From IMG/VR virus record IMGVR_UViG_3300047319_001031, positions 4,754 to 68,753 of that record: a DNA stretch of 64,000 nt; one strand, 5' to 3'. The notes below the pieces were generated by a model. It saw nothing but the letters and a program-made list of their open reading frames with translations, had not been told where the DNA came from and did not search any database. Made by a program: the position numbers and the translations under genes. The number at the start of each line of letters is the position of its first letter. Within the stretch, counting starts at the first letter, position 1. Of this stretch, positions 43,347 through 61,732 are shown one piece after another. The DNA comes from a virus.

Positions 43347-43913
43347 TCAGTCGTCGCGGCGCTCATCACGCTTGGTCTGCCGATCGTCTTGGCGTGCGTC
43401 GCGCTCGCCCTTCCGCTCGTCTTGCTTGGCATCGCGCTCAGCTTTCCGCTCGTCACGGCTACCACGATCAGGCCGCTCGTGGCCGGGAGTTCCGGGTACG
43501 AAGCCGGGCGGTGTTTCAGGCTCGGGTGGCGGCACCACACCATCCTTCGATCCCTTCACGACCAGCAGCGATTGATCGGTACAGATGACCACACCCGATG
43601 GGTGTCCGTTCTCGTGCGCGCCGTAGTCGTAATACGTGCCGGTGAAAATGTCATAGCGCGGCGGGCCGTTGCTCGCCATGACAGCGTTGTAATCCGCGTT
43701 GCTCATGAAATCGAGAACTTCCAGATCGCCGAACTTGTAAATGAAACCGGCAGCGACCGCTGCCTGTTGTCGATGGCCGGGGATGTTCTGCTCGCCGCCC
43801 GTGACCGGCAGTGTCTTCGACCAGTCGGTCACCTTTTTTCCGAGATCGGTCAGGTGGCGTTGTGCCGACTCGCCGTGTTCAAATTCGACCATCACTTCGT
43901 CGAGATCAATCAT
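43347..43913 (-). CDS. hypothetical protein with charged repeat tail
   Basis: AGGAG RBS; DERK.ERDA repeats. Confidence 0.7.
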   Translation of the reverse strand: MIDLDEVMVEFEHGESAQRHLTDLGKKVTDWSKTLPVTGGEQNIPGHRQQAAVAAGFIYKFGDLEVLDFMSNADYNAVMASNGPPRYDIFTGTYYDYGAHENGHPSGVVICTDQSLLVVKGSKDGVVPPPEPETPPGFVPGTPGHERPDRGSRDERKAERDAKQDERKGERDARQDDRQTKRDERRDD

Positions 43914-44317
43914 GTTGACTCTCCTTTGGGGGATTCACTGCTTACAGCATGAACATTGGTGTCAGCAGGATGCGTAACCAAGTGGTCCATGTGTTCCTCG
44001 GTGGGTGGTACGGCGAACAGAGGGGTATTCTGCAGTGCCTTTTCGTATGAGTCAATGCGATCGATGAGGCCAACGTAGCCAGCGACGTCAATTAGCGAGT
44101 CACGATGGCGTGGTGAGTGCATCAGCCGTGCCACTTTCATCAGCACCATCATCATGGCAACATCTTCCACCGTGAGCGACAGCGCCACGTGGTGTTTCCG
44201 TTCGATGAAAACGCGCCACAGCTCGGCGATGTTTTCGAGGTTGACGCCCGGGCTGCCGTAGGTCTGCTCGCGATCGCCGTGGATGATCTCGTGCGCTTCG
44301 GTGAGGATGTCTTTCAT
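43910..44317 (-). CDS. DUF6378-like protein
   Basis: ILTEA..IIHGDRE..YG.P...K.AR...DS.IDVAGY; start approximate. Confidence 0.8.
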   Translation of the reverse strand: MKDILTEAHEIIHGDREQTYGSPGVNLENIAELWRVFIERKHHVALSLTVEDVAMMMVLMKVARLMHSPRHRDSLIDVAGYVGLIDRIDSYEKALQNTPLFAVPPTEEHMDHLVTHPADTNVHAVSSESPKGEST

Positions 44318-44392
44318 GCAAACACCATAGGTAATGACCACATGCTGATGTGGTCAATAGTATAGTGGGATTGGTACTGCTGAGGTAAAGCT

Positions 44393-44414
44393 CCCCCCGG
44401 GCGGCCGGGGGGTT
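44393..44414. terminator. GC hairpin after micro-ORF cluster
   Basis: CCCCCCGG-GCGG-CCGGGGGG; no clear U-tract on the - strand. Confidence 0.45.
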
Positions 44415-44417
44415 AGA

Positions 44418-44564
44418 TCACTTCGGCCATCTTCCTGAGCGTGAGTGTTGCCACGACCAAGGCATAGGTTGAGATCCGCCTGTTCGTGACGCACCGTACG
44501 GCCATGTGCCTGACTTCGACACGGACAGCATCCACTTCCATCGCCAAGGCGGAAGGAAGATCAC
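44418..44564 (-). CDS. MI-head Ser/Arg/Trp micro-ORF (48 aa)
   Basis: MIFLPPWRWKW...WSWQHSRSGRWPK; GTGA overlap. Confidence 0.55.
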   Translation of the reverse strand: MIFLPPWRWKWMLSVSKSGTWPYGASRTGGSQPMPWSWQHSRSGRWPK

Positions 44565-44698
44565 CGCGTCGACTCCGATCGGATGCGCGGGCTCGACCGA
44601 GACCGGCACCACGACCAGCACACCGGGCCGGTGCGCGATGCACAGCGTGATAGGCGCTCCAACATGGTCCGGGTCACCCAGCCGGGGAAGCGGATCAT
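44561..44698 (-). CDS. MI-head Ser/Arg micro-ORF (45 aa)
   Basis: MIRFPGWV...WSWCRSRSSPRIRSESTR; ATGA overlap. Confidence 0.55.
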   Translation of the reverse strand: MIRFPGWVTRTMLERLSRCASRTGPVCWSWCRSRSSPRIRSESTR

Positions 44699-44826
44699 CG
44701 CCAGCTCACTGATTTCGCCGTGGCTCGCCCCCTTGCCGCTCCTGACCACGACCACGCCTGCCCTCGGAACGACGAGACGTCCTTCCGCTTGTTACCCTTT
44801 GGTGTGACAGGAAGTAGAAGGATCAC
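44695..44826 (-). CDS. MI-head Ser/Arg micro-ORF (43 aa)
   Basis: MILLLPVTP...AWSWSGAARGR...SVSWR; GTGA overlap. Confidence 0.5.
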   Translation of the reverse strand: MILLLPVTPKGNKRKDVSSFRGQAWSWSGAARGRATAKSVSWR

Positions 44827-45218
44827 GCCGCCACTTTCTTCTTCGGCCGCTTGGTGTGGGCCTTTTCTGTAGGGAACACCGAGCGCACTTTGCCATGCTT
44901 CTTACCGTTGACCTTGGCCACCACCTTGGCCTTGGCTGGCTTGGCAGCGCGCGGTGGTTGGTGCATCACCATGTCGTCTGGTAGGCGCCACAGCCGCATG
45001 CCCCCTTGGTCCTTCCGGATCATCACCTGAATGTTGAGCTTCTTGGCCACACGATAGAAGCGCGTGGCGCGCTTGGCGATCGGCGCATCGAAGTAGATGC
45101 TCTCGCCCGGCTGCAGCGCCTTCAAGAGTGCAATGTTGTGCCCCTGCCGCGCTGCTACCGGTGGAATCGGAACGTTCTGTTCCACCGTGAAACCGTAAAC
45201 AATTCGCTTGCTGCTCAT
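44823..45218 (-). CDS. putative DNA-binding protein with Lys-rich tail
   Basis: VEQNVPIP...LQPGES...MRLWR; AGGAG RBS. Confidence 0.7.
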   Translation of the reverse strand: MSSKRIVYGFTVEQNVPIPPVAARQGHNIALLKALQPGESIYFDAPIAKRATRFYRVAKKLNIQVMIRKDQGGMRLWRLPDDMVMHQPPRAAKPAKAKVVAKVNGKKHGKVRSVFPTEKAHTKRPKKKVAA

Positions 45219-45271
45219 TTTATAGTCCTCTCCTTTGTAAGCCATGTGTAAGGTGGGATCACCTGAGTAAG

Positions 45272-45568
45272 TTAGTCGGGTACCTCTGTTGCCGGTGGTA
45301 TTGCCACCGACCCTACGATTTGCCCGGCGTGCATAATTGCCACTTCCGGTGCAATTATAGATTGCGTGCGACAAAAGGCAAGTATGTCAGCTATTGTAGT
45401 ATCCAACCCTACAAGCTCAACAAGTGGCGGGGTGGCTCTTACGAGGGTCAACCGGTTGGCCCCCCGGAAGGCGTCGACGCCCATCGCGACGCATAGGCGG
45501 GTCAGCCGAGTCTCCGTCCTAGTAGCTCGCGCTAGTATTTCTTGTAGCATGTTGTGGTCATTTGCCAT
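45272..45568 (-). CDS. hypothetical protein
   Basis: AAAGGA RBS; RTETRLTRL. Confidence 0.6.
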   Translation of the reverse strand: MANDHNMLQEILARATRTETRLTRLCVAMGVDAFRGANRLTLVRATPPLVELVGLDTTIADILAFCRTQSIIAPEVAIMHAGQIVGSVAIPPATEVPD

Positions 45569-45740
45569 GTTGCTTTCCTTTGGTAAATGCTGATCTATCG
45601 TGGCTACCGGATAGAGATGTAGAAAAAGACCACGCGTGCATCGAGCACCACAGTTTAGTAGAGCCCGAGTGCGATCGCGAGACCCGTACGGGCAGCAGCT
45701 TAGTGTTCCGGCATATCAGCCATGGGGGCAGGGGGATCAT
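45558..45740 (-). CDS. MI-head Ser/Arg micro-ORF (60 aa)
   Basis: MIPLPPWLICR...SRSHSGS...WSFSTSLSGS. Confidence 0.55.
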   Translation of the reverse strand: MIPLPPWLICRNTKLLPVRVSRSHSGSTKLWCSMHAWSFSTSLSGSHDRSAFTKGKQHGK

Positions 45741-45895
45741 CGCTGCGTCTTTCTTCCTTGTTGCCTCGATCCCGAGTACGCCATTGAACGTGCTCCATGC
45801 CACGATGCAAACCCCGACGTGCGTCGCGTTGCCGATCCTGATCGAGACGCTCGGGGTGCCCGTTGCGTAACGGGCCAAAACAGAATCAGGATCAT
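45737..45895 (-). CDS. MI-head Ser/Arg micro-ORF (52 aa)
   Basis: MILILFWP...SRSGS...YSGSR. Confidence 0.55.
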   Translation of the reverse strand: MILILFWPVTQRAPRASRSGSATRRTSGFASWHGARSMAYSGSRQQGRKTQR

Positions 45896-46035
45896 CGCGG
45901 CCCCGATTTCGATTGAACATACGATCGCGATCTAGCTAGGCCATTTTTTGTTCCTGACATTGACCATGGACGTTTGACCACGCCCGATCCTGAACGTGAC
46001 CCTCTTGCATTCCACCATCGAGGAATAAAAATCAC
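45892..46035 (-). CDS. MI-head Ser/Arg micro-ORF (47 aa)
   Basis: MIFIPRWWNARGSRSGSG...RSRSYVQSKSGPR. Confidence 0.55.
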   Translation of the reverse strand: MIFIPRWWNARGSRSGSGVVKRPWSMSGTKNGLARSRSYVQSKSGPR

Positions 46036-46844
46036 GCCGCCCTCACGCGAATGTTACGGTGCTCGGTGCGCACCGTCTTTGTGTTGAACCACTTCGGATC
46101 GCCCAGCTCGGCGCGCAGCAGGCAGTTGATCAGGGCCTCGGTGGCGCCGATGGGATCGGCATGCTTGGTGGCTCGTCCAACCCGCCCGTAGCACGCCCGC
46201 CCAAGGGGCGAGGTGTTCGTGGCGCAGCGAGCGATGTCAGCGTGGTCGGCCTGTGCATCGAGCAGCCTGAACAGCTCGCGTCTCGCCTCGTGGCCATCGG
46301 GTGCTGAGGCGTACCCGTCGAATCCGACCAGCTTCGGAAACTCGCCCAGTACCAGCCGGGCAAAGCAGGCGTTGCGGAAGTGCTCGCCGATGCGCCGCCG
46401 CTCGGCCTTCAGCTCGGGCTTGACCCGGATCTCATCTCGAACCTTGACGATGACGTTCTGCACGGTGCCATCCGGCAGCACCACGATCGCTCGATCCATG
46501 GGCCACCAGTCGCCGTAGATGTCGCGGAACACCTGCTGTCCGTGCTCGACGCCTACTGAGAACGGTCCGTGCTCGCTGGTGCAGCTGCGCGTGATGTTGC
46601 TGTCCCAGTCGTTCACGATCACCGTGCCGTCGCGAAAGAACTGCAGGATGTCGGTGCGGTAGAGCCGCATGCACATCGCGCGCTCGTACTCGTCGCTCAC
46701 CGGATGGATGTACTCTCTGGATCGCAGTCCATAGTTTTTGCTGCGGCCCTCAGCGATCAGGACCTCGGGTTTATCCAACAATAGCTCAGCGATACGGTCG
46801 TAACTCAACCGCCCACTGATCTTCAGGCTCGATCTTCCGTACAT
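46032..46844 (-). CDS. hypothetical protein (270 aa)
   Basis: ACTAAAGGA leader; RLYRTDILQF..DG. Confidence 0.75.
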   Translation of the reverse strand: MYGRSSLKISGRLSYDRIAELLLDKPEVLIAEGRSKNYGLRSREYIHPVSDEYERAMCMRLYRTDILQFFRDGTVIVNDWDSNITRSCTSEHGPFSVGVEHGQQVFRDIYGDWWPMDRAIVVLPDGTVQNVIVKVRDEIRVKPELKAERRRIGEHFRNACFARLVLGEFPKLVGFDGYASAPDGHEARRELFRLLDAQADHADIARCATNTSPLGRACYGRVGRATKHADPIGATEALINCLLRAELGDPKWFNTKTVRTEHRNIRVRAA

Positions 46845-49203: not shown

Positions 49204-49323
49204 GACATCATTATAACATGTGACATGTCACGCTCATAGCTGGAAACGCACAAAAGCCATGTTCAGAACTTGTGCCACACGTGCTGCGTCAATAAGTTAT
49301 CGAGCCGACGAACGGTCGAACAG

Positions 49324-49614
49324 TCATTCGATCGGCACTGCATTCCGTGCAGCTTCGACGTCACTGAAGCCACCTTCGTCGTCGGCTATGCCGTCGCCAG
49401 TGGCCTGCCACTTATCGAACTCCTCGACGAACGCCACCAAGGCGGCGTAGCTGTTGCACGCACGGACGATAATCTGCGCTGCTTCCTCGTCGTAAACCGT
49501 AGCGATACAGGTGTCGGTGTTGCCGTTAGCCGTACCATCTGCTTCGCGAATGGTATGGTGGCCAAGCGCATCCGGGCACTCGTCAACAACGAGCATTCCT
49601 AGGGTCGGCATCAT
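49324..49614 (-). CDS. hypothetical protein
   Basis: AAQIIVRACNSY motif. Confidence 0.65.
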   Translation of the reverse strand: MMPTLGMLVVDECPDALGHHTIREADGTANGNTDTCIATVYDEEAAQIIVRACNSYAALVAFVEEFDKWQATGDGIADDEGGFSDVEAARNAVPIE

Positions 49615-50366: not shown

Positions 50367-50526
50367 GTTCTCCTTTAGTTAGTTTTGCTACGCGTGCCAT
50401 GCGGATGCAACCAGCCCTTCTTTGTGATGTGCACACGCTTTCCGCATGTTAGGCAAGTTCCATAATTGCCCCAGCGTGCACCGCCTTGTGTTCGCCCGCC
50501 ACCCTTGTACTCACCACGACACCAGT

Positions 50527-50892
50527 TCATCTGTTGATGGGTGCGGGGTGAGCCCATAGTCCCTCCGGTGGGGTGGTCTGAACAGCCAGCTTGATGACGA
50601 GCTGCAGCGTGTCGTCGAACTCGGGCATGAGATGGAATTCTTGACACACCCGCACGCCCTCGGTGAAATCGCCCGGCGTACTGGATCTCTTGCCGTCCGC
50701 TCTGCGCAGCGGGATGTCCACGCGACCATCCGCTGAAAATTTCACCGTACGAATGAGATCGAGGAACAACAGCCCGTCGTCAGTCGACTCGGGGTTGCCG
50801 GGAATGCGCATCGACTCGTCCGCAACGGCTACCTCTGCTGGTTCAGCAATAAAATACGAATGCCCACAACGTAATTGAAGCGCCCATTTCAT
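50527..50892 (-). CDS. hypothetical protein
   Basis: ACTAAAGGAG leader. Confidence 0.65.
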   Translation of the reverse strand: MKWALQLRCGHSYFIAEPAEVAVADESMRIPGNPESTDDGLLFLDLIRTVKFSADGRVDIPLRRADGKRSSTPGDFTEGVRVCQEFHLMPEFDDTLQLVIKLAVQTTPPEGLWAHPAPINR

Positions 50893-50910: not shown

Positions 50911-50930
50911 ATTGTGAGACGTCTCACAAA
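50911..50930. promoter_or_regulatory. 20-bp palindromic operator-like site
   Basis: ATTGTGAGACGTCTCACAAA. Confidence 0.75.
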
Positions 50931-50939
50931 TCGGCCCTA

Positions 50940-51074
50940 CTATGTCGGTGGCTGCCATAGCTTCGGCTTGGCCTTCGCCTTCGGTTCCTTCAGGTGAAGC
51001 CGTACTGCCAGATACACGCACACACCAGCGATCGTGCCTGCCAGTGCGGCGACTACAACAGCAAAGAATTCCAT
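50940..51074 (-). CDS. single-TM peptide (44 aa)
   Basis: MEFFAVVVAALAGTIAGVCVYLAVR plus Lys tail. Confidence 0.55.
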   Translation of the reverse strand: MEFFAVVVAALAGTIAGVCVYLAVRLHLKEPKAKAKPKLWQPPT

Positions 51075-51463
51075 CACTGATTCTTTTGGTCGACTCGCTT
51101 CTGTGTGGCAGCCAGCAGCAACTTCATCAGACCGAGCTTCCACTTCGCCAGTTTCACTTGTAGCTCCAGCATGCGGGCCAAGGTAAACACAGGCGGGCCG
51201 TCGTCGTTGAAAAGAAAGTTCGGCTCTGAGCCGCGTTCCAGTGCACGGTGGGCACGTTGAATCTTTGCCCCTTCGGTCTCGACCAGCTTCTTTAGCTCAA
51301 CCATCTCCTCAGCAAGTTGGGCTAGCTCTTCACGTGTCAGCACGTAGTTGTTCGCGTGCACCAGCGTCTCAGGCAGCTGCACTTGCCTTGTCTCGCGGTC
51401 ATACCATGGGTTGCGCGGGTTGCGCTCGAACCAATGGAAGGGCACGGTCTCGGCGTGCTTCAT
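51074..51463 (-). CDS. hypothetical protein
   Basis: Coupled ORF. Confidence 0.6.
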   Translation of the reverse strand: MKHAETVPFHWFERNPRNPWYDRETRQVQLPETLVHANNYVLTREELAQLAEEMVELKKLVETEGAKIQRAHRALERGSEPNFLFNDDGPPVFTLARMLELQVKLAKWKLGLMKLLLAATQKRVDQKNQ

Positions 51464-51696
51464 GCTGCGCTCGTAACTTCTTCGATGTACTGGAATGCCT
51501 CATCCAGCGATCCTACGGCGCTCTCCAAGCTGGTAGCGGCGGCATCGAGCGCCTGACCCTTCTCGCTCTCCTGCGCCTTCTCGCCCTTATTATCGAACTC
51601 TTCGCGAGCTTCGCTGGCAATCGTCTCCAGATCGGACTTCACCTGCTCGATCGACGATGCGATGACGGACAGGGCTTTCAGTTGTGATGCTTTCAT
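51460..51696 (-). CDS. acidic helical protein
   Basis: E.FDN..E..QESEKGQ. Confidence 0.7.
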   Translation of the reverse strand: MKASQLKALSVIASSIEQVKSDLETIASEAREEFDNKGEKAQESEKGQALDAAATSLESAVGSLDEAFQYIEEVTSAA

Positions 51697-51708
51697 TGCT
51701 CTCCTTTT

Positions 51709-51921
51709 TTATAAGTTGCGAACGAGGACCGTGTTGTCGAATTCACGCTTGCGCTTCCGGTCCATCTTGTACGCATAGCGTTGCGTTGCTATTTCAGCGA
51801 ACCACTGCCGCAGCTCGTGGCCATCCCACTCTTCCGGGACTTGCGGCAGATGTTCAAGCATGTGCTTCTTGGCGCCCTCGCACATCTCGGCGATGATGCG
51901 AGCTTGATCATCTTTGGTCAT
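51709..51921 (-). CDS. hypothetical protein
   Basis: VPEEWDGHELRQ. Confidence 0.65.
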   Translation of the reverse strand: MTKDDQARIIAEMCEGAKKHMLEHLPQVPEEWDGHELRQWFAEIATQRYAYKMDRKRKREFDNTVLVRNL

Positions 51922-51935
51922 TCCCTTTCCTTTAG

Positions 51936-53159
51936 TTAGTTGACGTTCACCACTTCACCGAACGGCGCCGTAGAGATCTGGCTCACACTTACCCAGATCA
52001 CAGGAATATCCGGCTCGCGTCCGAACCTACCTTCCATATCGGTCAAGAACAGACAGACCTCGGGCCGCTCTTCGCAATCCTCAAGATCATCTGCAAGCCA
52101 GCTGAAGTTCGTACCACCGCCGCCGACTTGATGCACTTGAACCTCAGCATCACCGCGGTCGAAGCGCTGGTCGTACTCGTGATTGACTGTGGTCTGGAAG
52201 TAGCGGACCTCGATCCACTTCGGCTTGACCTCTTCCCAGATGTCCTTCATGTGGTGATTGAAGACAGGAAGATCATCCCAGCAGGAACCGGAAGCATCGA
52301 TGTACATCCGGACACCGCCCATGGCGGGCTGGTATAAGTCCGGTGCGATCACGCCGGTCTTGATAAATTCCCGACGACTGAAGCGAGACCATGAGTAGTC
52401 CGCTATCGACATGGATTTAAGATGCTGCTCAACAACTTCATACCAGTGCACCCTAACGTGGTCAGCGGACTCAAGAGCCCGCTTCATCCACGCTGGCACA
52501 TTACCTGCCATCTTAGCAGCCTGATCCGCCGCCTTCAACTCATGGCGTACCCGGTTCTCAAACTCCTGCTCGGTCTCTTTGGGCCGGTCGGTCGGTGCCT
52601 CTTCCGGCTGGCCGTCCGGAGTCTCCCCGAACCGGACCAGATCCTTGGCAGTCCCGACCATCTCTTCGGTGAATTCTTCAAAGGTCTTGCTGCCCCCTTG
52701 CTTCTTGTGCTCCTCATGGGCCTTATCCATGAGATCGTCGTACACCGCTTCAGTGGTCCAGTCCTTGTACTCCGGATCACAGAACCAGTTGAACGGCTTG
52801 CCATCGATCGTCATGTCTGCCAGCGGCTTGAAGCCCGACTCCTGCAGCATCAGGTTGATCACGTGATCCCCGGCAATATTCCAGATGAACGGGTTGCGCG
52901 CACCAAGCCGGGACGGGTGCATGAACACCTTGTGCCCCAGCTCGTGCGCCACAGCCGTCATCTTTCGATCCCGGTCCAACTGCCCCCAGAACTTCGGATC
53001 GACCCACACCGACACACCATTCGTTGCCAGCGTCTTGAACGGCAGATCGTGGCACTCGTAGAACTGCATGGTGTAATACATTCCCATGAACCATGAGTAG
53101 CGCAACATCAACCGCGCTGCGGTCGGCGCCATCTGGTCGAAGGGTTTGTTGTACGTCAT
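51936..53159 (-). CDS. DUF2201-like metallopeptidase plus vWA protein
   Basis: TLATNG, AHELGH, WNIAGDHVIN; MIDAS DASGS, GGGGT, LTD. Confidence 0.85.
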   Translation of the reverse strand: MTYNKPFDQMAPTAARLMLRYSWFMGMYYTMQFYECHDLPFKTLATNGVSVWVDPKFWGQLDRDRKMTAVAHELGHKVFMHPSRLGARNPFIWNIAGDHVINLMLQESGFKPLADMTIDGKPFNWFCDPEYKDWTTEAVYDDLMDKAHEEHKKQGGSKTFEEFTEEMVGTAKDLVRFGETPDGQPEEAPTDRPKETEQEFENRVRHELKAADQAAKMAGNVPAWMKRALESADHVRVHWYEVVEQHLKSMSIADYSWSRFSRREFIKTGVIAPDLYQPAMGGVRMYIDASGSCWDDLPVFNHHMKDIWEEVKPKWIEVRYFQTTVNHEYDQRFDRGDAEVQVHQVGGGGTNFSWLADDLEDCEERPEVCLFLTDMEGRFGREPDIPVIWVSVSQISTAPFGEVVNVN

Positions 53160-53174
53160 GACACTTCCTTTCAG

Positions 53175-54050
53175 TTAGTTGGGTATCAGCACTGCGATGC
53201 GCGCCGCCAGAGCCTCAGCCTTGCGCTGCCGCTCCAGCCGGAACATATCGCTGTCCTTCAGATCCTTCCGCGTTACGCCATCCACCAGCGACACCGCTTC
53301 CGCCGCCAGTGCATCGATGCGAGGATCACGTGCGATGTTCAAGCGCTGTGCCGCTGCGCCCATGTTGCGCACGTTCTCGATCAGCGAGTCGTAGATTTTC
53401 TTGACGTCGCCATCGGTGTACGCCTTGAGCTGCTTGGCCATGTGCTGTACTGGCGTCAGCAACTCGGTGAACGCGTGGCTGATGCTCGCGTTGTACACCT
53501 TCTCCTGCTCTTCCTTCAGGCTGGCCTCGATCTCGGCCCGGACATGCGCCGGTATCTCGGTCAGCACCCGCACGTCGTTCGCATTCGGCAGCGGCTGCAC
53601 TGCCAAGCGCAACGCAAACCTAGCCCGCACGTGTTCCCACGCCGGGTAGTCGTTCGGATCGAACATGTCGCGCAACGTCTCCCGCATGGTGGCGATCTTG
53701 CCCGGGTACACGACCTCGAACGCATCGAGCAGCGGTTCCAGCCCGGCTTCCTTGTCGCCGAAGTCGGTCATCAGCTCCATGTGATTCTCGGCCTTGCCCA
53801 CCCGTACGCCCCGGGCCTCACCCCACGGCGCCGTGTGCAGGTAGAACCACGACCGGGTGCCACCGATCCAGCTGGCCACCGCCTTCAGCTCGTCGCAGTC
53901 GGGCAGGATCAGCTTGTTGAAGTTGCCCGCATCGGTGCTGTCACTCACCCCGTTGGCGACCTTGGCTTGGGACGTAACCCTCTTATCCAGCTTGCGCGCC
54001 GTCCACGTTGGCGCGTTAAGGCTGTACATCAGCAGCGACGTCAATTCCAT
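53175..54050 (-). CDS. DUF3150-like helical protein
   Basis: WTARKLD...T.PW...FDPNDYP; between AAA and vWA genes. Confidence 0.6.
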   Translation of the reverse strand: MELTSLLMYSLNAPTWTARKLDKRVTSQAKVANGVSDSTDAGNFNKLILPDCDELKAVASWIGGTRSWFYLHTAPWGEARGVRVGKAENHMELMTDFGDKEAGLEPLLDAFEVVYPGKIATMRETLRDMFDPNDYPAWEHVRARFALRLAVQPLPNANDVRVLTEIPAHVRAEIEASLKEEQEKVYNASISHAFTELLTPVQHMAKQLKAYTDGDVKKIYDSLIENVRNMGAAAQRLNIARDPRIDALAAEAVSLVDGVTRKDLKDSDMFRLERQRKAEALAARIAVLIPN

Positions 54051-54069
54051 TTCCGACTCCTTTAGTTAG

Positions 54070-54089
54070 TTTGTGATACCTCTCACAAA
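54070..54089. promoter_or_regulatory. 20-bp palindromic operator-like site
   Basis: TTTGTGATACCTCTCACAAA. Confidence 0.75.
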
Positions 54090-54471
54090 ACGCGATGCGG
54101 CGTGAAGCCATCCACGGCCGCGCAATACATCAGTACGACTGGTATGCAATGCGTGTCATAGGCATAGCTTAGAAACATCTCGCCATCCCACAGAGCAACC
54201 TTGCCCGTCCAGCCATCGCCGTAATACCACGTACCTTGCACCAATCTTTCACGGGGTATGACGGTGTGTTCGACTGCGGTGCGCTCGGCCATGATCGGCC
54301 TCCTTCGGTTGCGGCTTGATTTCACATTCCGCCTTGCAGCGCTCGCAAAACTCAGCGCCGTAGGCGACCAGCTTGCTGCGATCGTTGATGGCAACCCGCG
54401 CATCGACATACACGCGCGAGCTGCCGCACCTCGTACAGATCCATTTCATGATGCACACTCCCAGAACTGCC

Positions 54472-55584
54472 TTACACCTCCGAACCGGACCCGCGCATCA
54501 GCCTGTTGATATGCGGCTGGCACATCCAGTCCTTGTACTCCTTGCTCACCTGAATGACGCCCATGGCTGCGTTCTCACTCTTGTCAATCCGTTCATTGAT
54601 CAGTCGCGTGAATGCATTCTGAAACTCGTGCTTGTACCGCGCCATGTACACCAACATCGGTTTGAACGTTTTCGGAGCGATGGTAAGGGCCAACATGTAG
54701 GTCAGGGCAAAGCACTCATCCATCCGTTCCGGTACTTTCGCCTTGTCTGGACGCTTGAGAATTTCCTCGATCGTGGCGAGGTTGTCCACCATGCTTAGAT
54801 AAGTTTCGAACGTTGCCGCCACACCTGAGCCCACGTTGCGTGCGATCTCGTCCGGTATCAGTGGTTCGTGTGTCTCGTCGACATCTTTCAGAATGCGGCT
54901 CACCTTGTCCCACGAGCGCAGGTTGGCCCAGATGCCCATCTTGCCTTCCTGCACCATGAGATCGTTGGCCTCGCGCTTCTCGTCGAACACCGTGGCGTAG
55001 TTGGACAGGCACGCCGGGTGCTTCATGAGGAACGCGGATACCTTCTCGTGGAAGTTATCCTTAGCCACATCGAGCGCGTACTCCGGATCGAATTCCAGCT
55101 CCACCGTCATGAACCGGCTCATGATGGCCCGGCTCTGCTGTTGTGCCTGACTGCGGTGCTTGAACCCGTTGCCATCCGCGACGAAGATGACGCCATCCGG
55201 AATCCGGAACCCACCCAGATCCTCGTGGTTGATCAGCTTCTGGAAACCGCGGCTGGTCTCGGCACTCATCAGCATCCACTCGCCGATGTAGATGATGCCG
55301 CGCATATCCGGCGTGTTGTACGCGTTCGGCAGTCGGCCATCGATCAGACGCAGGATGCTTCTGGCATCCATGTCCGGCATCGCCATGACCGTATCCGTTG
55401 GCGCCATCGTGCCACCGTCCATGCGTTGAAAGCAGAAATACGGATCAGCTGCTTTCTCTTCTTCGCCCACCTTGTTGATCATGGTGGTCTTGCCCAGCGC
55501 CGGCTCGCTGATGAGCAGCAAGTTGTACCGACACCGCAGCGCCCGTCTGACCAATGGGCGCACTTGGTTCATCGATGAAGCCAT
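54472..55584 (-). CDS. MoxR-like AAA+ ATPase
   Basis: SEPALGKT, IYIGE, DGN, SRF, RSW. Confidence 0.8.
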   Translation of the reverse strand: MASSMNQVRPLVRRALRCRYNLLLISEPALGKTTMINKVGEEEKAADPYFCFQRMDGGTMAPTDTVMAMPDMDARSILRLIDGRLPNAYNTPDMRGIIYIGEWMLMSAETSRGFQKLINHEDLGGFRIPDGVIFVADGNGFKHRSQAQQQSRAIMSRFMTVELEFDPEYALDVAKDNFHEKVSAFLMKHPACLSNYATVFDEKREANDLMVQEGKMGIWANLRSWDKVSRILKDVDETHEPLIPDEIARNVGSGVAATFETYLSMVDNLATIEEILKRPDKAKVPERMDECFALTYMLALTIAPKTFKPMLVYMARYKHEFQNAFTRLINERIDKSENAAMGVIQVSKEYKDWMCQPHINRLMRGSGSEV

Positions 55585-55614
55585 TACGTTTCTCCTTCGT
55601 TAGTAAATAAATGG

Positions 55615-55634
55615 TTTGTGATACCTCTCACAAA
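55615..55634. promoter_or_regulatory. 20-bp palindromic operator-like site
   Basis: TTTGTGATACCTCTCACAAA. Confidence 0.75.
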
Positions 55635-55660
55635 TAGTACTGCACTTACACTTGCACCTG

Positions 55661-55891
55661 CTACTGCTCATACCATCCATCCAGCCCGTATTGGTGATCG
55701 AGCTGATCGGATGTAAATCGATGTGCATCGTCGCGGCAATCGCCAAAGTAATCGGCAAGGTGGTACTCACTACAACAGCCACACTCGACTACTAGGACGG
55801 GCGGACTGAACCAGCTCTGCGTGTTCGATCGCGTCCGCGACCCTGACGTTGATCGGCACGTAGGGTAGGCGACAAAGGGTAGGAAGATCAT
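55661..55891 (-). CDS. MI-head micro-ORF fused to a Cys/acidic domain (76 aa)
   Basis: MIFLPF...RSTSGSRTRS then ECGCC..YH...GDCRDD. Confidence 0.55.
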   Translation of the reverse strand: MIFLPFVAYPTCRSTSGSRTRSNTQSWFSPPVLVVECGCCSEYHLADYFGDCRDDAHRFTSDQLDHQYGLDGWYEQ

Positions 55892-56043
55892 CGGCCATAC
55901 CTCGGACCACGACGACCACCAGAAAAAGAAGTGAAACTTTTGACGCCGCTAATGCGCGACTTTGATGTGGAAAAGTAATATCTAAATCGTGTCGTCGTGG
56001 TAACTCCGCGCGTGTTCGTTAGCCAGAGGGGTAGGGGGATCAT
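55888..56043 (-). CDS. MI-head Ser/Arg micro-ORF (51 aa)
   Basis: MIPLPLWL...; ATGA overlaps. Confidence 0.6.
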   Translation of the reverse strand: MIPLPLWLTNTRGVTTTTRFRYYFSTSKSRISGVKSFTSFSGGRRGPRYGR

Positions 56044-56204
56044 CGTGACCCTATTCTCGATGCGAACTTTGTCCATGGATATTTACTTCCCGAAAGCGAA
56101 TAGGGCTGACCACGCAACCCAGATTCTGACCAGCCGTAGTTGCGGCTCCTACCAGTAGCCTTCGAATACGAACCACTCGTTGCCCAATAGGGTAGGGGGA
56201 TCAT
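56040..56204 (-). CDS. MI-head Ser/Arg micro-ORF (54 aa)
   Basis: MIPLPYWATSGSYS... Confidence 0.6.
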   Translation of the reverse strand: MIPLPYWATSGSYSKATGRSRNYGWSESGLRGQPYSLSGSKYPWTKFASRIGSR

Positions 56205-56380
56205 CGCCCTCGATCTCCTGAATACGAACGATGCGAACCTTGGACTCTTGACCCGCTGTGTCGTTTGTAAAACGAACATGCACAGCCAGCACTGAGTGAC
56301 CACGTACGATGCGTTGTCGGGACCATGCGTGACTTGATCGTCATCGGATGTGCCAGCATGAAACCGGGGACGAGGATCAC
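56201..56380 (-). CDS. MI-head Ser/Arg micro-ORF (59 aa)
   Basis: MILVPGF... (GTG start). Confidence 0.55.
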   Translation of the reverse strand: MILVPGFMLAHPMTIKSRMVPTTHRTWSLSAGCACSFYKRHSGSRVQGSHRSYSGDRGR

Positions 56381-56574
56381 AATGTTCTCTTTCCCGAACG
56401 GAACCACGAAGCGTAGCGCATACCACTAAGCGAGTAACACTTCGATCGGTACACGGATTCACTTGCCGTGCTGGTTATGGATACCGCACGCCCTCGGCAA
56501 GTAGACCATGCGCCTCTACCAGAAGCAGCCCAACAGAACGAAAGGTTGGACCCGTAATGGCTAAGCAGGATCAT
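56377..56574 (-). CDS. MI-head Ser/Arg micro-ORF (65 aa)
   Basis: MILLSHY... Confidence 0.55.
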   Translation of the reverse strand: MILLSHYGSNLSFCWAASGRGAWSTCRGRAVSITSTASESVYRSKCYSLSGMRYASWFRSGKRTL

Positions 56575-56855
56575 TGCGGCACCAGCAGCAACTGATACGG
56601 TTCCACATCCAACGCATAAGCGATCGCAGCAACAGCATCCATGCTCACGCCGTATTCTCCGGCGAGAATGTAGCCAATGGTTCGAGCCGACACCAGCTTG
56701 CCCTTCTTGATCCCGGATAAATAGCGGGCCTGCAAACGCTTAACGCCTATGCGTTTTGCTTTCATCAGTGCCTTGATGTTGTCAGCCAGCTGGCGACGAT
56801 AGTCGATCGGCATTGAACGACCACACGTTGGACAAATGTTAGCTTTGGTTTTCAC
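56571..56855 (-). CDS. XRE-family HTH regulator with CxxC
   Basis: CPTC; LADNIKAL...VSARTI..I..G....SMD.V..IA.AL.V.P..LL. Confidence 0.75.
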   Translation of the reverse strand: MKTKANICPTCGRSMPIDYRRQLADNIKALMKAKRIGVKRLQARYLSGIKKGKLVSARTIGYILAGEYGVSMDAVAAIAYALDVEPYQLLLVPQ

Positions 56856-57019
56856 TATGTCTCCCTCGATTCCGATTTCCAAACGGATGCTGACCTAGAT
56901 CCAAACCTTGACTTCGGTGGTGACCGATGGTCTCGTCCTGACCGTGAGTACCAGTACATCATCGTCCTTGATCGAGACCACGACCGTGCATCATCTAGCC
57001 AGCTACCGAGCAGGATCAT
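56855..57019 (-). CDS. MI-head Ser/Arg micro-ORF (54 aa)
   Basis: MILLGSWLDDARSWSRSR... Confidence 0.6.
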   Translation of the reverse strand: MILLGSWLDDARSWSRSRTMMYWYSRSGRDHRSPPKSRFGSRSASVWKSESRET

Positions 57020-57168
57020 GACGAGTGTGCCCTCGATGTGAACATCGACCCCGAGCGCGATCGATTCCGTCTCTGCGTTGCCGTACCACACGACGAACTC
57101 CTGCGCCGTATTCTCTTTGCACCTGAGCGTGACTGCAATCCCAGCCGCCAGAAGGGTAGGGGGATCAT
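57016..57168 (-). CDS. MI-head Ser/Arg micro-ORF (50 aa)
   Basis: MIPLPFWRLGLQSRSG... Confidence 0.6.
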   Translation of the reverse strand: MIPLPFWRLGLQSRSGAKRIRRRSSSCGTATQRRNRSRSGSMFTSRAHSS

Positions 57169-57335
57169 GATGATTGCGATCTCGTCCACGCCCCCAGCAC
57201 CGACTGCACACGACCGTTGCCTTTCCGCCCTCCAGATATTGATGCCCATACTGATCCGGACGCAGCCCCCGATGACGACATGCATTTTTGCTGGGAACGT
57301 ACTACCGACAACAACCACGGATGCAAGGGGATCAT
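57165..57335 (-). CDS. MI-head Ser/Gly micro-ORF (56 aa)
   Basis: MIPLHPWLL... Confidence 0.6.
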   Translation of the reverse strand: MIPLHPWLLSVVRSQQKCMSSSGAASGSVWASISGGRKGNGRVQSVLGAWTRSQSS

Positions 57336-57475
57336 TGCACCACCGGCCACCATGACTTACGCGAGCGCCATTGCGACCACATCCGCCCAACGGAATGCGA
57401 TTGCCCCAACAAGCCGGACCTCCCACGCGATCGAGAGTACCGTTTGCCCCGCCATACGGGGTGTAGCAAGATCAT
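57332..57475 (-). CDS. MI-head Ser/Arg micro-ORF (47 aa)
   Basis: MILLHPVWRGKRYSRSRGRSG...WSQWRSRKSWW. Confidence 0.6.
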   Translation of the reverse strand: MILLHPVWRGKRYSRSRGRSGLLGQSHSVGRMWSQWRSRKSWWPVVQ

Positions 57476-57494
57476 TTGTGAGAGGTCTCACAAA
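57475..57494. promoter_or_regulatory. 20-bp palindromic operator-like site
   Basis: TTTGTGAGAGGTCTCACAAA. Confidence 0.75.
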
Positions 57495-57497
57495 CCG

Positions 57498-57857
57498 TTA
57501 CTTCTGCACCCGCTGCAGCTTCGACACGATCTTCGCATCGACGATGCACCCGCGGTTGACGATCACGTGGCCATCAGGGAACGGCTCGCACTCGTTGAAC
57601 GTCTCGGTCTTGAGCGCATCGGCGAACCGGCCCGTGTCGGGAATCCACGCTGCATCTTCCAGCAGCAGCTCGTGCTCGCTGATGGCGATCAGCCGGCCGA
57701 CGTTGGTCATGGTGACGGTGCGAATGAAGTAGATCGCCCCGAGGCGCCACAGCCCGATGTGCTTGGGATCACTGGGGATGATCTCGGTCTGCTGCGTCAG
57801 CTTCTCAGTGATGATCGCGTCGACCTCGGCTTGGGTGTACGTCGCTTTCTTTGCCAT
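57498..57857 (-). CDS. small beta-barrel (Sm-like?) protein
   Basis: G.IYFIRTVT...GRL...ELLLEDAAWIPDTGRF...EP...VNRG.IVD; ACTAAAGGA leader. Confidence 0.75.
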   Translation of the reverse strand: MAKKATYTQAEVDAIITEKLTQQTEIIPSDPKHIGLWRLGAIYFIRTVTMTNVGRLIAISEHELLLEDAAWIPDTGRFADALKTETFNECEPFPDGHVIVNRGCIVDAKIVSKLQRVQK

Positions 57858-57924
57858 GATATTTTTCCTTTAGTTAAGGTTGCTGCAGGCTACACGCTCG
57901 AATGAACGTGCACCCAAGAGGAAC

Positions 57925-58080
57925 CTATTGCGACCTTGCTCTCTTCATCATCTTATTTGATTCCGATACTGACCCTGATCTCCTTCCCGTACGGCACCCG
58001 AACACTGACCACATTCGTTTCACTCCTGTTCGTGACCCAGACGCGTTGCGCCACATCTGCCACGGCGAAAATAGGATCAT
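57925..58080 (-). CDS. MI-head Ser/Arg micro-ORF (51 aa)
   Basis: MILFSPWQMWRNASGSR... Confidence 0.6.
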   Translation of the reverse strand: MILFSPWQMWRNASGSRTGVKRMWSVFGCRTGRRSGSVSESNKMMKRARSQ

Positions 58081-58217
58081 CTCGACCTCGACCCACACCA
58101 CGAATACACCCGTGACGCAGAGTGCGATGTATGCATGGTTGTTTTATTGCCACGTGACCGGGACTTTATGCTCTGCCCCTTGCGATTGTGGAATTTCCAC
58201 GGGTTGAACAGGATCAT
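58077..58217 (-). CDS. MI-head Ser/Arg micro-ORF (46 aa)
   Basis: MILFNPWKF...YSWCGSRSR. Confidence 0.6.
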   Translation of the reverse strand: MILFNPWKFHNRKGQSIKSRSRGNKTTMHTSHSASRVYSWCGSRSR

Positions 58218-58399
58218 CCCACTCCCTTTTCACCACGTGACACCGATCGTGATTTGTCCCCTGATGTTGAAGCTGGGGCAATGCGGTTGCGTGACTGGGT
58301 GAACGATCGCGCTACTTGACCGAAGCGCGACCACTCCACTGGCTTTGACCGTGCACCTGAGCGGGACATGCGAACGTGCCAACGTTGTATCAGGATCAT
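58214..58399 (-). CDS. MI-head Ser/Arg micro-ORF (61 aa)
   Basis: MILIQRWHVRMSRSGARS... Confidence 0.6.
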   Translation of the reverse strand: MILIQRWHVRMSRSGARSKPVEWSRFGQVARSFTQSRNRIAPASTSGDKSRSVSRGEKGVG

Positions 58400-58759
58400 T
58401 GCGCGCGACTACTAGGTCTCTTCACGCGCGTTGCTGATCAGCAGGCTGATCAGGTTCTCCAGATCACGATGCTGATGCGCTGTGATTGGCGTGTGCTGAT
58501 AGATGATGCGTGCCATGTTGTTGATGACGTTGGCTGACACAACAACGTCGGTGTTGCTCGGTAGGGTAGGGTTCACAACGTCGCCCCATCGATCTCGATC
58601 AGCTCATCGTTCCCGGGCTCATCCTGCTCGGCCGGGAATGTGCACGACCCAATGGTGACCGTGATCTCATGCGCGTGATCATCGATCCACTTGCGTGCCT
58701 CAGCCTCACTCGTTGCCCTAATGCGCATCGTCGTGAACAGCTTCACATCAAAGCCGTAC

Positions 58760-59275
58760 TCATGCGTCGTCATCATCATCCCCTTCTTCATCATCACCAA
58801 ACTCCAGATACAATGCGACCACGCCCATCTCGTTAGTGATGGTGAAGCATCGATAGCTACCGTCACCAAAGGCTGAGCTGCTGACCACGCCGCTGTCATC
58901 GATCACGCCCCAGCCATGGCCCGGGTGCGCTGTGGTAGCGCAACACTTGCCATAGAAGCTGGCCTTATCGTCGTACTCACCACCATGATGCTGGTTGAAA
59001 TACTCAGCATCGAAGAACCCTGCTTGGCCTGAGTCCACGCCAACATCGATGTCCGAGTCCACCCACAATTCATCCGTTGTCGGCATCGGAACCTTGTCGT
59101 GCCATGCGAAGATCCGCATCTGGCGCAGCCCCCACTGACCTTGGTGTTCCGTTTCCACATTACAAAACCAGCGGCCCTTGGCCACGTTCTCGATCGTGCC
59201 AGCGCACCACGTGTCGGGCTTGTAGCATGGGTCAGTGACCCGCACCTTGCCTGACTTGATTGTGAAGCTAAGCAT
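58760..59275 (-). CDS. DUF4241-like protein
   Basis: VTDPCY, GVDSGQAGFFD, SAFGDGSY. Confidence 0.75.
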   Translation of the reverse strand: MLSFTIKSGKVRVTDPCYKPDTWCAGTIENVAKGRWFCNVETEHQGQWGLRQMRIFAWHDKVPMPTTDELWVDSDIDVGVDSGQAGFFDAEYFNQHHGGEYDDKASFYGKCCATTAHPGHGWGVIDDSGVVSSSAFGDGSYRCFTITNEMGVVALYLEFGDDEEGDDDDDA

Positions 59276-59286
59276 TCCGTTCCCCT

Positions 59287-59538
59287 TCAGTTAGTAACAG
59301 CCTCATGCAGCGGCAGCTGCACAGGTGTGTAAGCGCACGTGATGATCTGCCGGTACGCAGTGGTAACCCAAGCGCGCTCGATCCATACCGGACCACAACG
59401 CATCTCGCCCATGGTGTCACTCCACACTGCCTCGCCTAACAACAGCTTGGTAGGAGTGAGCGCGGTCAGCTTGCCTGTCGCTGTCAACGTGGGTGTACTA
59501 ACCACGTACACCGCCCCGACTTGCCAGTCATTCTTCAT
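59287..59538 (-). CDS. possible paralog of 57498-57857
   Basis: GAVYVVSTPT...TGKL...LLL.EAVW. Confidence 0.6.
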   Translation of the reverse strand: MKNDWQVGAVYVVSTPTLTATGKLTALTPTKLLLGEAVWSDTMGEMRCGPVWIERAWVTTAYRQIITCAYTPVQLPLHEAVTN

Positions 59539-59558
59539 TGCTGTCCTTTAGTCAGTGG

Positions 59559-59578
59559 TTTGTGATACCTCTCACAAA
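59559..59578. promoter_or_regulatory. 20-bp palindromic operator-like site
   Basis: TTTGTGATACCTCTCACAAA. Confidence 0.75.
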
Positions 59579-59769
59579 TTGTTGATGGTACCGAGCGGCT
59601 GCGCCTTGCCCTGCGCCCGCAACGCGAGCTTGTGCATCAGCAACCCTGCCTTGATGACGTCATCCACATCGTTGTCGAATGCGTCAGTTTTGATGTAGCT
59701 ACGCAACGCTGCGATCAGCATCTTCGCCTCGTTGCTGTTCACCTGCACGTGATCGAACCGCGTTTCCAT
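59572..59769 (-). CDS. hypothetical protein
   Basis: ACTGAAAGGA leader. Confidence 0.6.
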   Translation of the reverse strand: METRFDHVQVNSNEAKMLIAALRSYIKTDAFDNDVDDVIKAGLLMHKLALRAQGKAQPLGTINNL

Positions 59770-59782
59770 GATTTCCTTTCAG

Positions 59783-60163
59783 TTATGGTGCTACGTCCTC
59801 GTCCACTCGCTCGATGATCTTGGCCTGCACCGCAGCCGGGATGCTGTCCCATTCCTCACTGGACAGATCGAAGTAGGCCATGATGTTGGCCACGCCCCAT
59901 GTTTCTATGGGCACGGTCTCAACGAATCCATCCATGCGCTCCTGCAATTCCACACGCTTGACGTCAGCCAGCTCGGGAAATTCCTTGCGGTCCTCGTCGG
60001 TCACGTTGAACTTGGCCACACCATCGTCGTCACTGTCGGCGCCGCCATGCATCATCAGATCGTAGAAGTACAGCGCATACACCGGCTCACCCTCGAACTT
60101 GCCGGGTGAGATGATGACGCCATCCTTTACCTTGTATTGTGCTTCGATCTCAGCGCGTGTCAT
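59783..60163 (-). CDS. hypothetical protein
   Basis: SPGKFEGEP. Confidence 0.65.
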   Translation of the reverse strand: MTRAEIEAQYKVKDGVIISPGKFEGEPVYALYFYDLMMHGGADSDDDGVAKFNVTDEDRKEFPELADVKRVELQERMDGFVETVPIETWGVANIMAYFDLSSEEWDSIPAAVQAKIIERVDEDVAP

Positions 60164-60164
60164 T

Positions 60165-60383
60165 TCATTTTCCTTGAGTGAATACCGCTTCCAGCATGTA
60201 CGCCATGTAATCGGCGTCGTTCTCCTGCCCGGTTACCTTGTTGATCCGCGGCATGGCAGGTATCACCACTTCGTCTCGCACGCGCGAATGAAACAACGGC
60301 GACATCCGGGTCTTCGCCCACAACGCAGCGGCTTTGGCCAGCTCCTGCTCAGTGAACAGCTTGCCCAGTGCGATCTTTTTCAT
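60165..60383 (-). CDS. hypothetical protein
   Basis: TGQEND..Y.AY. Confidence 0.6.
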   Translation of the reverse strand: MKKIALGKLFTEQELAKAAALWAKTRMSPLFHSRVRDEVVIPAMPRINKVTGQENDADYMAYMLEAVFTQGK

Positions 60384-60559
60384 TCGTTATCCAGCATCGA
60401 TTGGTATTCGTCATTCACCTGCTGATCGGTCAGGTTGTTGTACTGCACCCAACCGTCACCCATCAGCACGCTATGCAGGAACGAGTGGTCATCGTCGTAA
60501 TTCAGAATCGAATCGATGTCGCGCTCAACCAGCCGCTTTACCTTTTCGTCGCGTGTCAT
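60380..60559 (-). CDS. small acidic protein (59 aa)
   Basis: ATGA-coupled at both ends. Confidence 0.55.
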   Translation of the reverse strand: MTRDEKVKRLVERDIDSILNYDDDHSFLHSVLMGDGWVQYNNLTDQQVNDEYQSMLDNE

Positions 60560-60759
60560 CCCACTTCCTTCAGCTGCCCATCGATGAACGTGTAATTCAC
60601 CGGATCAGCACACTCGACCACACGTGTGCCCGTCACCAGCATCCAGCGCCGCTTGAGATCAGCGACGTTATCCAACGCTTCCTGCTCAGTGGCAAAGCGC
60701 AGTGCGTTGCCACACCACGTGCCACTGCTGTCCGCTTGTACTTCGGGTTTCCAGCTCAT
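60556..60759 (-). CDS. hypothetical phage protein (67 aa)
   Basis: SWKPEV...W..NALRFAT..EA. Confidence 0.7.
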   Translation of the reverse strand: MSWKPEVQADSSGTWCGNALRFATEQEALDNVADLKRRWMLVTGTRVVECADPVNYTFIDGQLKEVG

Positions 60760-60777
60760 TGCATTTCCTTTCAGTGA

Positions 60778-60797
60778 ATTGTGAGACCTATCACAAA
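60778..60797. promoter_or_regulatory. 20-bp palindromic operator-like site
   Basis: ATTGTGAGACCTATCACAAA. Confidence 0.75.
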
Positions 60798-61057
60798 CCG
60801 CACACATCAGCCAGCATCGACACCGTAGTAGATGCGTCTGCATCGGTCACAGTGAAGCGCCAGCCTGTGTTGCGATTGGTCACCACCACGTACCGATACC
60901 CCTTGGTAGCAACCATGCGCTGCGCTGCTGCGATGGCCCGGTTAGGGCAGGCGTGGAACCTGCCTACCTGCACGTGAGCACCCTCACCCATGCTGCCCTT
61001 GACATCAGCAGTGATGGCGTACGTGCCCACGCTCTTGCGATGATAGTCTAGGAACAT
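60791..61057 (-). CDS. hypothetical protein
   Basis: GGAG RBS. Confidence 0.55.
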   Translation of the reverse strand: MFLDYHRKSVGTYAITADVKGSMGEGAHVQVGRFHACPNRAIAAAQRMVATKGYRYVVVTNRNTGWRFTVTDADASTTVSMLADVCGL

Positions 61058-61233
61058 CGCGCTCCCTCATTGAACACCAGCTCGTCGGTGCGCACCCACG
61101 TGAATGGGTTGACCCGCTCGCCAAAGTTACAGAAGCACCGCTCGCTGCCATGCACTAACACCATGCAGCGAAACCCGGTGCGCACGTGCGTTGCTGCCAA
61201 CTGCTCGTTGGCTTGGTACTCGGAATGCTCCAT
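61048..61233 (-). CDS. hypothetical protein
   Basis: ACTAAAGGA leader. Confidence 0.55.
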   Translation of the reverse strand: MEHSEYQANEQLAATHVRTGFRCMVLVHGSERCFCNFGERVNPFTWVRTDELVFNEGARCS

Positions 61234-61412
61234 GATTTTCCTTTAGTGAATGTGCTGCTCTGCCTCGTTGGCCATGCGCACGAACACCTGCGCCAGCCAG
61301 CGTAAGTCCTCGGGCCTGCTCACACCTGTGCGATAGCCATCGATCTCGACCATGACCACGGTCGTGCTCGTGTTGCGCTTGGGCCGGCGCAACTCGGTGA
61401 TCATTTTCTTTT

Positions 61413-61658: not shown

Positions 61659-61732
61659 GATCCTTTCCTTTAGTAAGTGGAGTTGCTTGGGTTGTGCGCC
61701 CTCGATGGACGTTCGTCTCGATGAAGATGCAC

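Follow-up and report, generated by a model that had tools for sequence, protein, structure and literature searches.

The window analysed here is a stretch of 64,000 nucleotides (nt) of IMG/VR virus record IMGVR_UViG_3300047319_001031 (positions 4,754 to 68,753), a 68,753-base record rated complete. Between 44418 and 46035, it carries on the minus strand two runs of three very short open reading frames (ORFs), the satellite triplets, in addition to a main array of such units at 55661-58399. Judged by their sequence, the satellites are decayed members of a widespread phage family of micro-proteins, whose genes in other phages normally sit directly behind a gene for a predicted Sm-fold protein. 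The six ORFs are probably real, translated micro-protein genes of this Sm-associated family, multiplied in this phage to 18 chained copies, which is the largest expansion seen in this analysis.

All six minus-strand ORFs lie where the initial annotation had placed them and have the heads that it had listed. As it had also noted, each triplet is attached to an ordinary gene by a GTGA overlap, triplet 1 at the TGA of 46032-46844 and triplet 2 at that of 44823-45218. The satellites are 43-60 codons long, three of the six begin with GTG, and every one of them begins where the co-oriented ORF before it stops, or overlaps that stop, neighboring units inside the triplets overlapping by ATGA or GTGA. 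Their heads read M-I-[FLPR]-[ILF]-..-W in five cases out of six, unit 44826 being without the W, and they align with the heads of canonical members in other phages. In the list below, bit scores are those obtained with a hidden Markov model (HMM) made from 28 members of the family in other phages.

45892 to 46035, minus strand: unit 1 of triplet 1, 47 codons; starts with a GTG that overlaps the TGA of 46032-46844; 14.6 bits, above all 592 background ORFs
45737 to 45895, minus strand: unit 2 of triplet 1, 52 codons; ATGA overlap; 20.0 bits, the highest score of all
45558 to 45740, minus strand: unit 3 of triplet 1, 60 codons; extends 11 nt beyond the ATG (45568) of the next ordinary gene; 15.8 bits
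44695 to 44826, minus strand: unit 1 of triplet 2, 43 codons; its GTG overlaps the TGA of 44823-45218; head without Trp; 7.7 bits, with three background ORFs higher
44561 to 44698, minus strand: unit 2 of triplet 2, 45 codons; ATGA overlap; 13.9 bits, above all background ORFs
44418 to 44564, minus strand: unit 3 of triplet 2, 48 codons; GTGA overlap; 7.8 bits

The canonical form of the family is found in other phages. When all frames were compared by tblastn with fetched relatives, a single locus (L110) lit up. It holds two ATGA-chained ORFs, each with a Pro/Phe/Trp-rich head followed by a pure (NGG TCG)n tail, which reads as Ser alternating with Trp, Arg, or Gly, and the pair lies behind a 59%-identical homologue of gene 57498-57857 of the window, the Sm-like gene. 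Searching viral contigs with that gene returned 47 loci. Forty of the loci extend for 200 nt or more past the homologue, and in 38 of these 40 a Ser-X micro-ORF lies directly behind it; at least four of the loci counted are near-duplicates. In 21 of these 38 loci, the micro-ORF starts 3 nt before the stop of the homologue, so that the overlap with an upstream stop, which had been presented as a trait of the satellites, turns out to be family-wide. Micro-ORFs stand in tandem, 2-7 at a time, in nine loci; the chains behind the Sm-like gene include seven units in L212 (862-2300), five in L222 (4252-5400), and four in L221. Canonical ORFs always have a start, a conserved head, and a stop, and phages with 28-63% GC (guanine plus cytosine) have similar heads, which align with those of the window. 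A family member consists of a hydrophobic head (I/L-L-x-x-x-W/F/Y) and a basic, probably unstructured tail of Ser alternating with Trp, Arg, or Gly, over some 35-120 codons. At one locus (L200:3626-4000), the longest ORF containing the Sm-like gene opens with a Val/Ala/Gly repeat, and a hexamer-repeat region is thus also present upstream of the gene.

With the HMM made from these 28 other-phage members, window units take ranks 1-9 among the 610 ORFs of their own genome, in which nine ORFs match the family HMM at E ≤ 0.01. The best of the 592 background ORFs reaches 11.0 bits, a level that four of the six satellites exceed with 13.9-20.0 bits. The micro-proteins have no entry in Pfam or PHROG, and a literature search, which did not extend to supplementary files, found no paper on Ser-X repeat micro-proteins or on their pairing with phage Sm-like genes. 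The family and its Sm-like pairing are undescribed in print, and the Sm-like gene plus micro-ORF is one of the commoner phage gene pairs without a description.

In the window, the triplets belong, as had been proposed, to the same family as the main array, for a total of 18 members. The accompanying remark that runs of three also occur in the main array is right for one run, but the other two have four and five units.

55661 to 58399, minus strand: main array, 12 units in runs of 3, 4, and 5, with two ordinary genes between
58399, 58217, 58080; 57475, 57335, 57168, 57019; 56574, 56380, 56204, 56043, 55891, minus strand: starts of the main-array units, run by run

The 18 members have the head M-I-[LPF]-[LIF]-x-x-W in common. 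In the 68.7-kb genome, the minus strand matches its strict DNA pattern (RTGATCY-NNN-T-N7-TGG) 12 times, while neither the plus strand nor the reversed control pattern gives a single match; the calculated chance expectation is about 0.13. Conservation in the head is at the level of amino acids, with synonymous variety: Leu at codon 3 is written in five different ways, and codon 4 is NTN. All 14 of the 14 spacings between a unit and the next head have the phase in which the TGA of the head closes the ORF before it; since unit ends were defined by that stop, it is this spacing phase that is the non-circular part of the evidence for the frame. Over its 965 codons the family frame contains no stop at all, whereas two shuffling schemes, with 2000 shuffles, give 27.7 (minimum 14) and 34.3 (minimum 17). 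Apart from a head of about 21 nt and a characteristic composition, the units (132-231 nt) have no common part. At the DNA level, their mean column identity is 33% and only eight columns are conserved in at least 90% of them, so the copies are not near-identical. At the protein level, S (17.9%), R (13.2%), G (9.2%), and W (5.3%) together make up 46% of residues, and strict alternation has been lost. Other viral contigs were searched both for an exact 15-mer of the head, with 13 single matches, and for a two-head pattern, with 69 loci; arrays were found in none of the former and tiling arrays in none of the latter. Across three consecutive units of the main array (57016-57471), all three forward frames are nearly free of stops save for the TGA of the heads, and the resulting apparent ORFs of 148-151 codons could be mistaken for genes by a gene caller.

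Codon usage in canonical and decayed members bears on which frame is translated. In canonical tails (loci L196-L241), the codon that alternates with Ser is TGG (115 times), GGG (109), CGG (71), or AGG (59). All other Arg/Gly codons come to 22, and the preference extends to phages with a GC content near 30%. The Ser codon depends on the phage (AGC 141, TCG 145, TCT 91, and TCA 28), a switch between AGC and TCN that is explained only by selection at the protein level and makes this frame the probable translated one. In the window units, Ser codons are mostly TCN (152, vs. 18 AGY) and codon position 2 is still strongly G/C, but the NGG rule does not hold: 62 of 210 Arg plus Gly codons end in G, which is about random, compared to 239 of 261 in canonical tails. 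Because synonymous positions have drifted while the residue classes S/R/G/W have stayed, the product is best understood as a protein under purifying selection, and the decayed repeats amount to a natural experiment in which residue classes are kept and synonymous sites drift.

The same hexamers speak to a competing proposal, namely that the real genes lie in the -1 frame and encode Val/Ile-rich, small, beta-rich proteins, perhaps via frameshifting at each head. That frame has the highest codon adaptation index (CAI) of the three (0.514) and its phase holds GTC and ATC triplets overwhelmingly; it also fits the distribution of GC over codon positions, which in the family frame is reversed, position 2 being the most GC-rich in 15 of 18 units. 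Yet there are 24 stops in the -1 frame of the 18 units, equal to the 24.9 of codon shuffles, there is no consistent start, and Pfam returned no match for its translation. Read in its other frames, (NGG TCG)n gives (Gly-Arg)n and (Val-Val/Ala)n, and because L110 holds such repeats intact, the periodic GTC signal of the window can be understood as a relic of decayed hexamer repeats. The -1 periodicity is fully explained as such an (NGG TCN)n relic, and in phages whose repeats use AGC or TCT, it gives another reading or is interrupted by stops. We give next to no weight to a -1-frame gene, a reading that is close to refuted. Since composition-based gene finders miss genes such as these or choose the wrong frame, the point matters for annotation.

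Several related ideas were tried and dropped. A CsrA-like reading of the -1 frame, based on the resemblance of an I-G-V motif, failed, as there was no Pfam match and no CsrA (PF02599) match in the genome at E ≤ 10. A CsrA sponge was considered because TCAGGA occurs 7 times vs. 0.5 expected, but there is no structure and no GGA-loop pattern. An array of T7-type primase sites (GGTC every 6 nt) was ruled out by the use of GGAGC hexamers in other phages, and stop-codon reassignment in the -1 frame by the mix of TAA, TAG, and TGA among its stops.

The Sm-like gene, which is the usual upstream partner of the family in other phages, was characterized by a structure model and fold searches.

57498 to 57857, minus strand: gene for a 119-aa (amino acid) Sm-fold protein, as predicted by structure model and fold searches

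The model, based on a 37-sequence alignment, has a predicted local distance difference test score (pLDDT) of 91.4. Sm/LSm chains fill nearly all of its top rows in Foldseek (E from 7.7e-4), and VIA, a search independent of Foldseek, gives an Lsm chain at Z 9.2 with a root-mean-square deviation of 1.9 Å over 66 residues and Hfq chains at Z 6.2-6.6. The protein is thus predicted to adopt the Sm fold, a strongly bent small beta-barrel. Profile searches were silent on this: at E ≤ 1, Pfam gave only a chance-level DAC match and no LSM or Hfq profile, and PHROG gave no match. Public metagenome protein predictions contain at least 5,848 members of this Sm-like family, all unnamed. In a collection of 50,697 phage records, the sole match is an uncultured record, in which the micro-ORF behind the gene carries the annotation "hypothetical protein"; no cultured example was found there. 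The gene is absent from the four complete relatives (G001-G004), and in the two scanned in full (G001 and G003) no ORF matches the family HMM. In the window, the main-array run 57475-57016 is the only run directly behind the Sm-like gene. An 83-aa gene at 59287-59538 has 43% identity with the Sm-like protein over 35 residues, and its product may be a partial paralogue.

A number of observations weigh against the six satellites being translated genes with a role tied to the Sm-like protein. Codon adaptation is poor, the pooled CAI of the family frame being 0.417, compared to 0.685 for long genes and 0.40-0.43 for the off-frames of the latter. The bodies are barely alignable, with a similarity between paralogues just 1.8 score units over a reversed-sequence null. 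In a collection of 5.8 billion proteins searched with an 18-unit profile, gene-caller products of the units were absent, except for the phage's own 76-aa unit (55661-55891). Units 44826 and 44564 fall below three background ORFs on the foreign-member HMM. Comparison with the main-array HMM, by which the satellites were to stand out from background, did so for two of them (24.1 and 19.6 bits) but not clearly for the other four (9.8, 6.0, and two below 5.3), since the background reaches 11.9. The near-universal NGG of canonical tails points to an extra constraint at the nucleotide level, which a protein reading does not account for and which keeps a role at the RNA level alive. Finally, the satellites lie 11-13 kb away from the Sm-like gene rather than directly downstream, and the putative functional tie to its product is drawn from gene neighborhood.

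How the triplets came to lie where they do was assessed by comparison with relatives and close strains. For synteny, we examined five relatives (L083/G001, L126, L127, L134, and L179), the polymerases of which are 59-70% identical and in which local gene order is kept. The genes and elements that flank the triplets are the following.

46032 to 46844, minus strand: ordinary 270-aa gene, the stop of which carries triplet 1; homologues syntenic in relatives
44823 to 45218, minus strand: ordinary 131-aa gene, the stop of which carries triplet 2; homologues abut the DUF6378 gene (43910-44341) in five relatives
44413 to 44421, minus strand: remnant of a further head, GTG ATC then TAA, which supplies the TGA that closes unit 44564
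44393 to 44412, minus strand: GC-rich hairpin with an 8-bp stem and a 4-nt loop, directly after triplet 2

Homologues of 44823-45218 and 43910-44341 abut or overlap in all five relatives, with gaps of 0-15 nt, so that triplet 2 is an insertion relative to them. At the site of triplet 1, the relatives have one or two ordinary genes. The two genes that carry triplets end in an identical 11 bases (46035-46045 and 44826-44836, both Ala-Ala-stop), while their homologues in relatives end differently, and the junctions may thus contain a few bases that came in with the arrays. The hairpin after triplet 2 looks like a terminator; a terminator scan did not flag it because its T-run is short. There are no tRNA genes (ARAGORN) and no Rfam matches in the window.

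Turnover of whole units could be seen directly in a variant strain, represented by contigs from two other soil or rhizosphere runs that are about 97% identical in flanking genes (one contig has 128 differences and 12 gaps across 3.8 kb). This strain lacks unit 58399 by a 182-nt skip between two heads with 9 nt in common, unit 57335 is skipped head to head, and unit 57019 is missing by a 164-nt skip, after which the ATGA is followed by the second codon of a helix-turn-helix (HTH) gene; the HTH gene consequently starts at the ATG of the head of 57019 and overlaps the previous stop. The stretch corresponding to 57325-55634 measures 1,971 nt instead of 1,690. Whole units of the main array thus come and go exactly at ATGA stop/start overlaps between close strains, a direct strain-to-strain view of such gains and losses. 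For the two triplets, no presence/absence polymorphism was seen between strains: triplet 1 is intact in the variant strain, with a net 3-nt deletion in its unit 3 (45687-45690) that keeps the frame, and triplet 2 has one weak, ambiguous joint (44581 to 44692). Elsewhere in the variant strain, stretches of 200-290 nt that lie between ordinary early genes are replaced or deleted, at 49322-49611, 50383-50582, 51076-51318, and 51705-51936, and the early region as a whole is a hot spot of cassette turnover.

The initial annotation had suggested that the family spreads by landing at stop codons and borrowing upstream translation. The pattern is in keeping with this insofar as the triplets are extra relative to relatives and are always joined upstream by RTGA, but an active landing mechanism finds no evidence: there is no transposase, the joints share only 3-9 nt, and none of the copies are nearly identical. 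The data are explained equally well by recombination, unequal or illegitimate, that joins heads or uses the RTGA microhomology.

Taken together, these findings suggest the following scenario. In other phages, the family sits directly behind the Sm-fold gene and would be translationally coupled to it; in this phage, which has that gene too, the micro-gene has been multiplied, and through ATGA/GTGA chaining, ribosomes finishing one ORF would restart on the next. Recombination at the short conserved heads or at RTGA junctions would lengthen and shorten the arrays and start new ones elsewhere, and since each unit brings a start and a stop in the right phase, the expression of the downstream gene would be left undisturbed. 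The peptides themselves may be basic, disordered partners of the Sm-like protein. By analogy with the Arg-Gly tails of eukaryotic Sm proteins, they might act with it on RNA in early infection as detachable basic tails, which we put forward tentatively and at rather less than even odds. A bolder and unlikely extension would have an Sm-like RNA chaperone served by a swarm of detachable Ser-X tails, the genes of which are self-propagating cassettes copying into the stop/start overlaps of other operons; turnover would be fast, with strains 97% alike elsewhere carrying different sets, as would be expected of peptides engaged in an arms race against some RNA or defence target of the host.

Two other explanations were weighed against that of a protein family. 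The units might be selfish filler similar to mycobacterial interspersed repetitive units (MIRUs), which are 40-100 bp in size, the in-phase start and stop serving to preserve coupling to the downstream gene and the peptides being inert. The insertions at stop/start overlaps that are absent from relatives, the variation of whole units exactly at ATGA between close strains, the poor codon adaptation, and the almost unconserved bodies are what filler would produce, and, according to a recent review, MIRUs insert at start codons in such a way that 4 nt overlap (-4) and expression is little disturbed (PMC12548453). It is nevertheless hard to see inert filler as the reason why, in phages of 28-63% GC, 38 of 40 loci retain a like ORF after the Sm-like gene, why the head is conserved as amino acids, why Ser is kept across AGC/TCN codon switches, or why residue classes persist here despite synonymous drift; the DNA of the copies, moreover, is too dissimilar (mean column identity 33%). 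We consider filler unlikely.

More improbable still, in our estimation, is an element acting at the RNA level, in which the GG that recurs every six bases forms an array of binding sites for a ring-shaped Sm-like protein, and translation is a by-product or a regulatory competitor. TRAP, which binds triplet repeats, offers a model for such an array. The neighboring protein has a predicted RNA-binding fold, and NGG accounts for 354 of the 376 W/R/G codons of canonical tails whatever the GC of the genome. Against this, the GG periodicity has decayed in the window (the 62 of 210 codons above), the other half of the hexamer is conserved as serine only and not as bases, the ORF always has its start, conserved head, and stop, and excess RNA structure is absent from the units, with a mean folding z of -0.06 over the 18 of them. 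A family of translated micro-proteins, to which the satellites would belong, is the explanation that we prefer.

As for the phage itself, replication genes in the window include a family-A polymerase, an SNF2 helicase, and a DUF2201/ATPase pair. The best tblastn matches of the ATPase are Escherichia phages such as G7C, at 23-24% identity; we take G7C-type phages to be N4-like, and the relationship of the window phage to them to be distant at best. No close relatives were found via the 270-aa gene (46032-46844) in viral or metagenome contigs, nor via the ATPase gene, and a DNA search of the phage collection gave no match. An 18-bp palindrome, TTGTGAGAnnTnTCACAA, is present in nine copies in 50912-63903, vs. 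0.05 expected.

50912, 54071, 55616, 57476, 59560, 60779, 62257, 62515, 63886: sites of the palindrome TTGTGAGAnnTnTCACAA

The sites inspected (54071, 55616, and 57476) are intergenic and in the early region, and one copy directly abuts the start of unit 57475. The palindrome probably serves as an operator, or else as a promoter or terminator specific to the phage.

The proposed arrangement has counterparts in known systems. The eukaryotic proteins SmD1, SmD3, SmB, and LSm4 carry C-terminal Arg-Gly dipeptide-repeat tails, and the phage pair likewise combines an Sm-fold core with a basic, low-complexity dipeptide-repeat tail. In contrast to the eukaryotic proteins, the tail here is a separate, translationally coupled Ser-Trp/Arg/Gly micro-protein in up to 18 copies, and its association with the core is putative. 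Among phages, the T4-type have small early proteins (GoF, MotB.1, and Frd.2) with a predicted LSm-like fold and a suspected role on RNA; the product of 57498-57857 is likewise a small phage protein with such a predicted fold, and for the T4 proteins the abstract describes no repeat-peptide partner (PMC12152347). As to architecture, the units resemble MIRUs, which are short, co-oriented intra-operon cassettes with an ORF of their own that overlaps the stop and start of its neighbors by 4 nt and a copy number that varies between strains (PMC12548453). In the window, the 5' ends of both triplets show this overlap, the last unit of triplet 1 overlaps the start of the next gene, triplet 2 ends at a hairpin, and copy-number variation is seen at main-array units 58399, 57335, and 57019. 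Unlike MIRUs, which are near-identical DNA repeats without a conserved protein partner, the window units look to be a protein family that is kept across very different phages.

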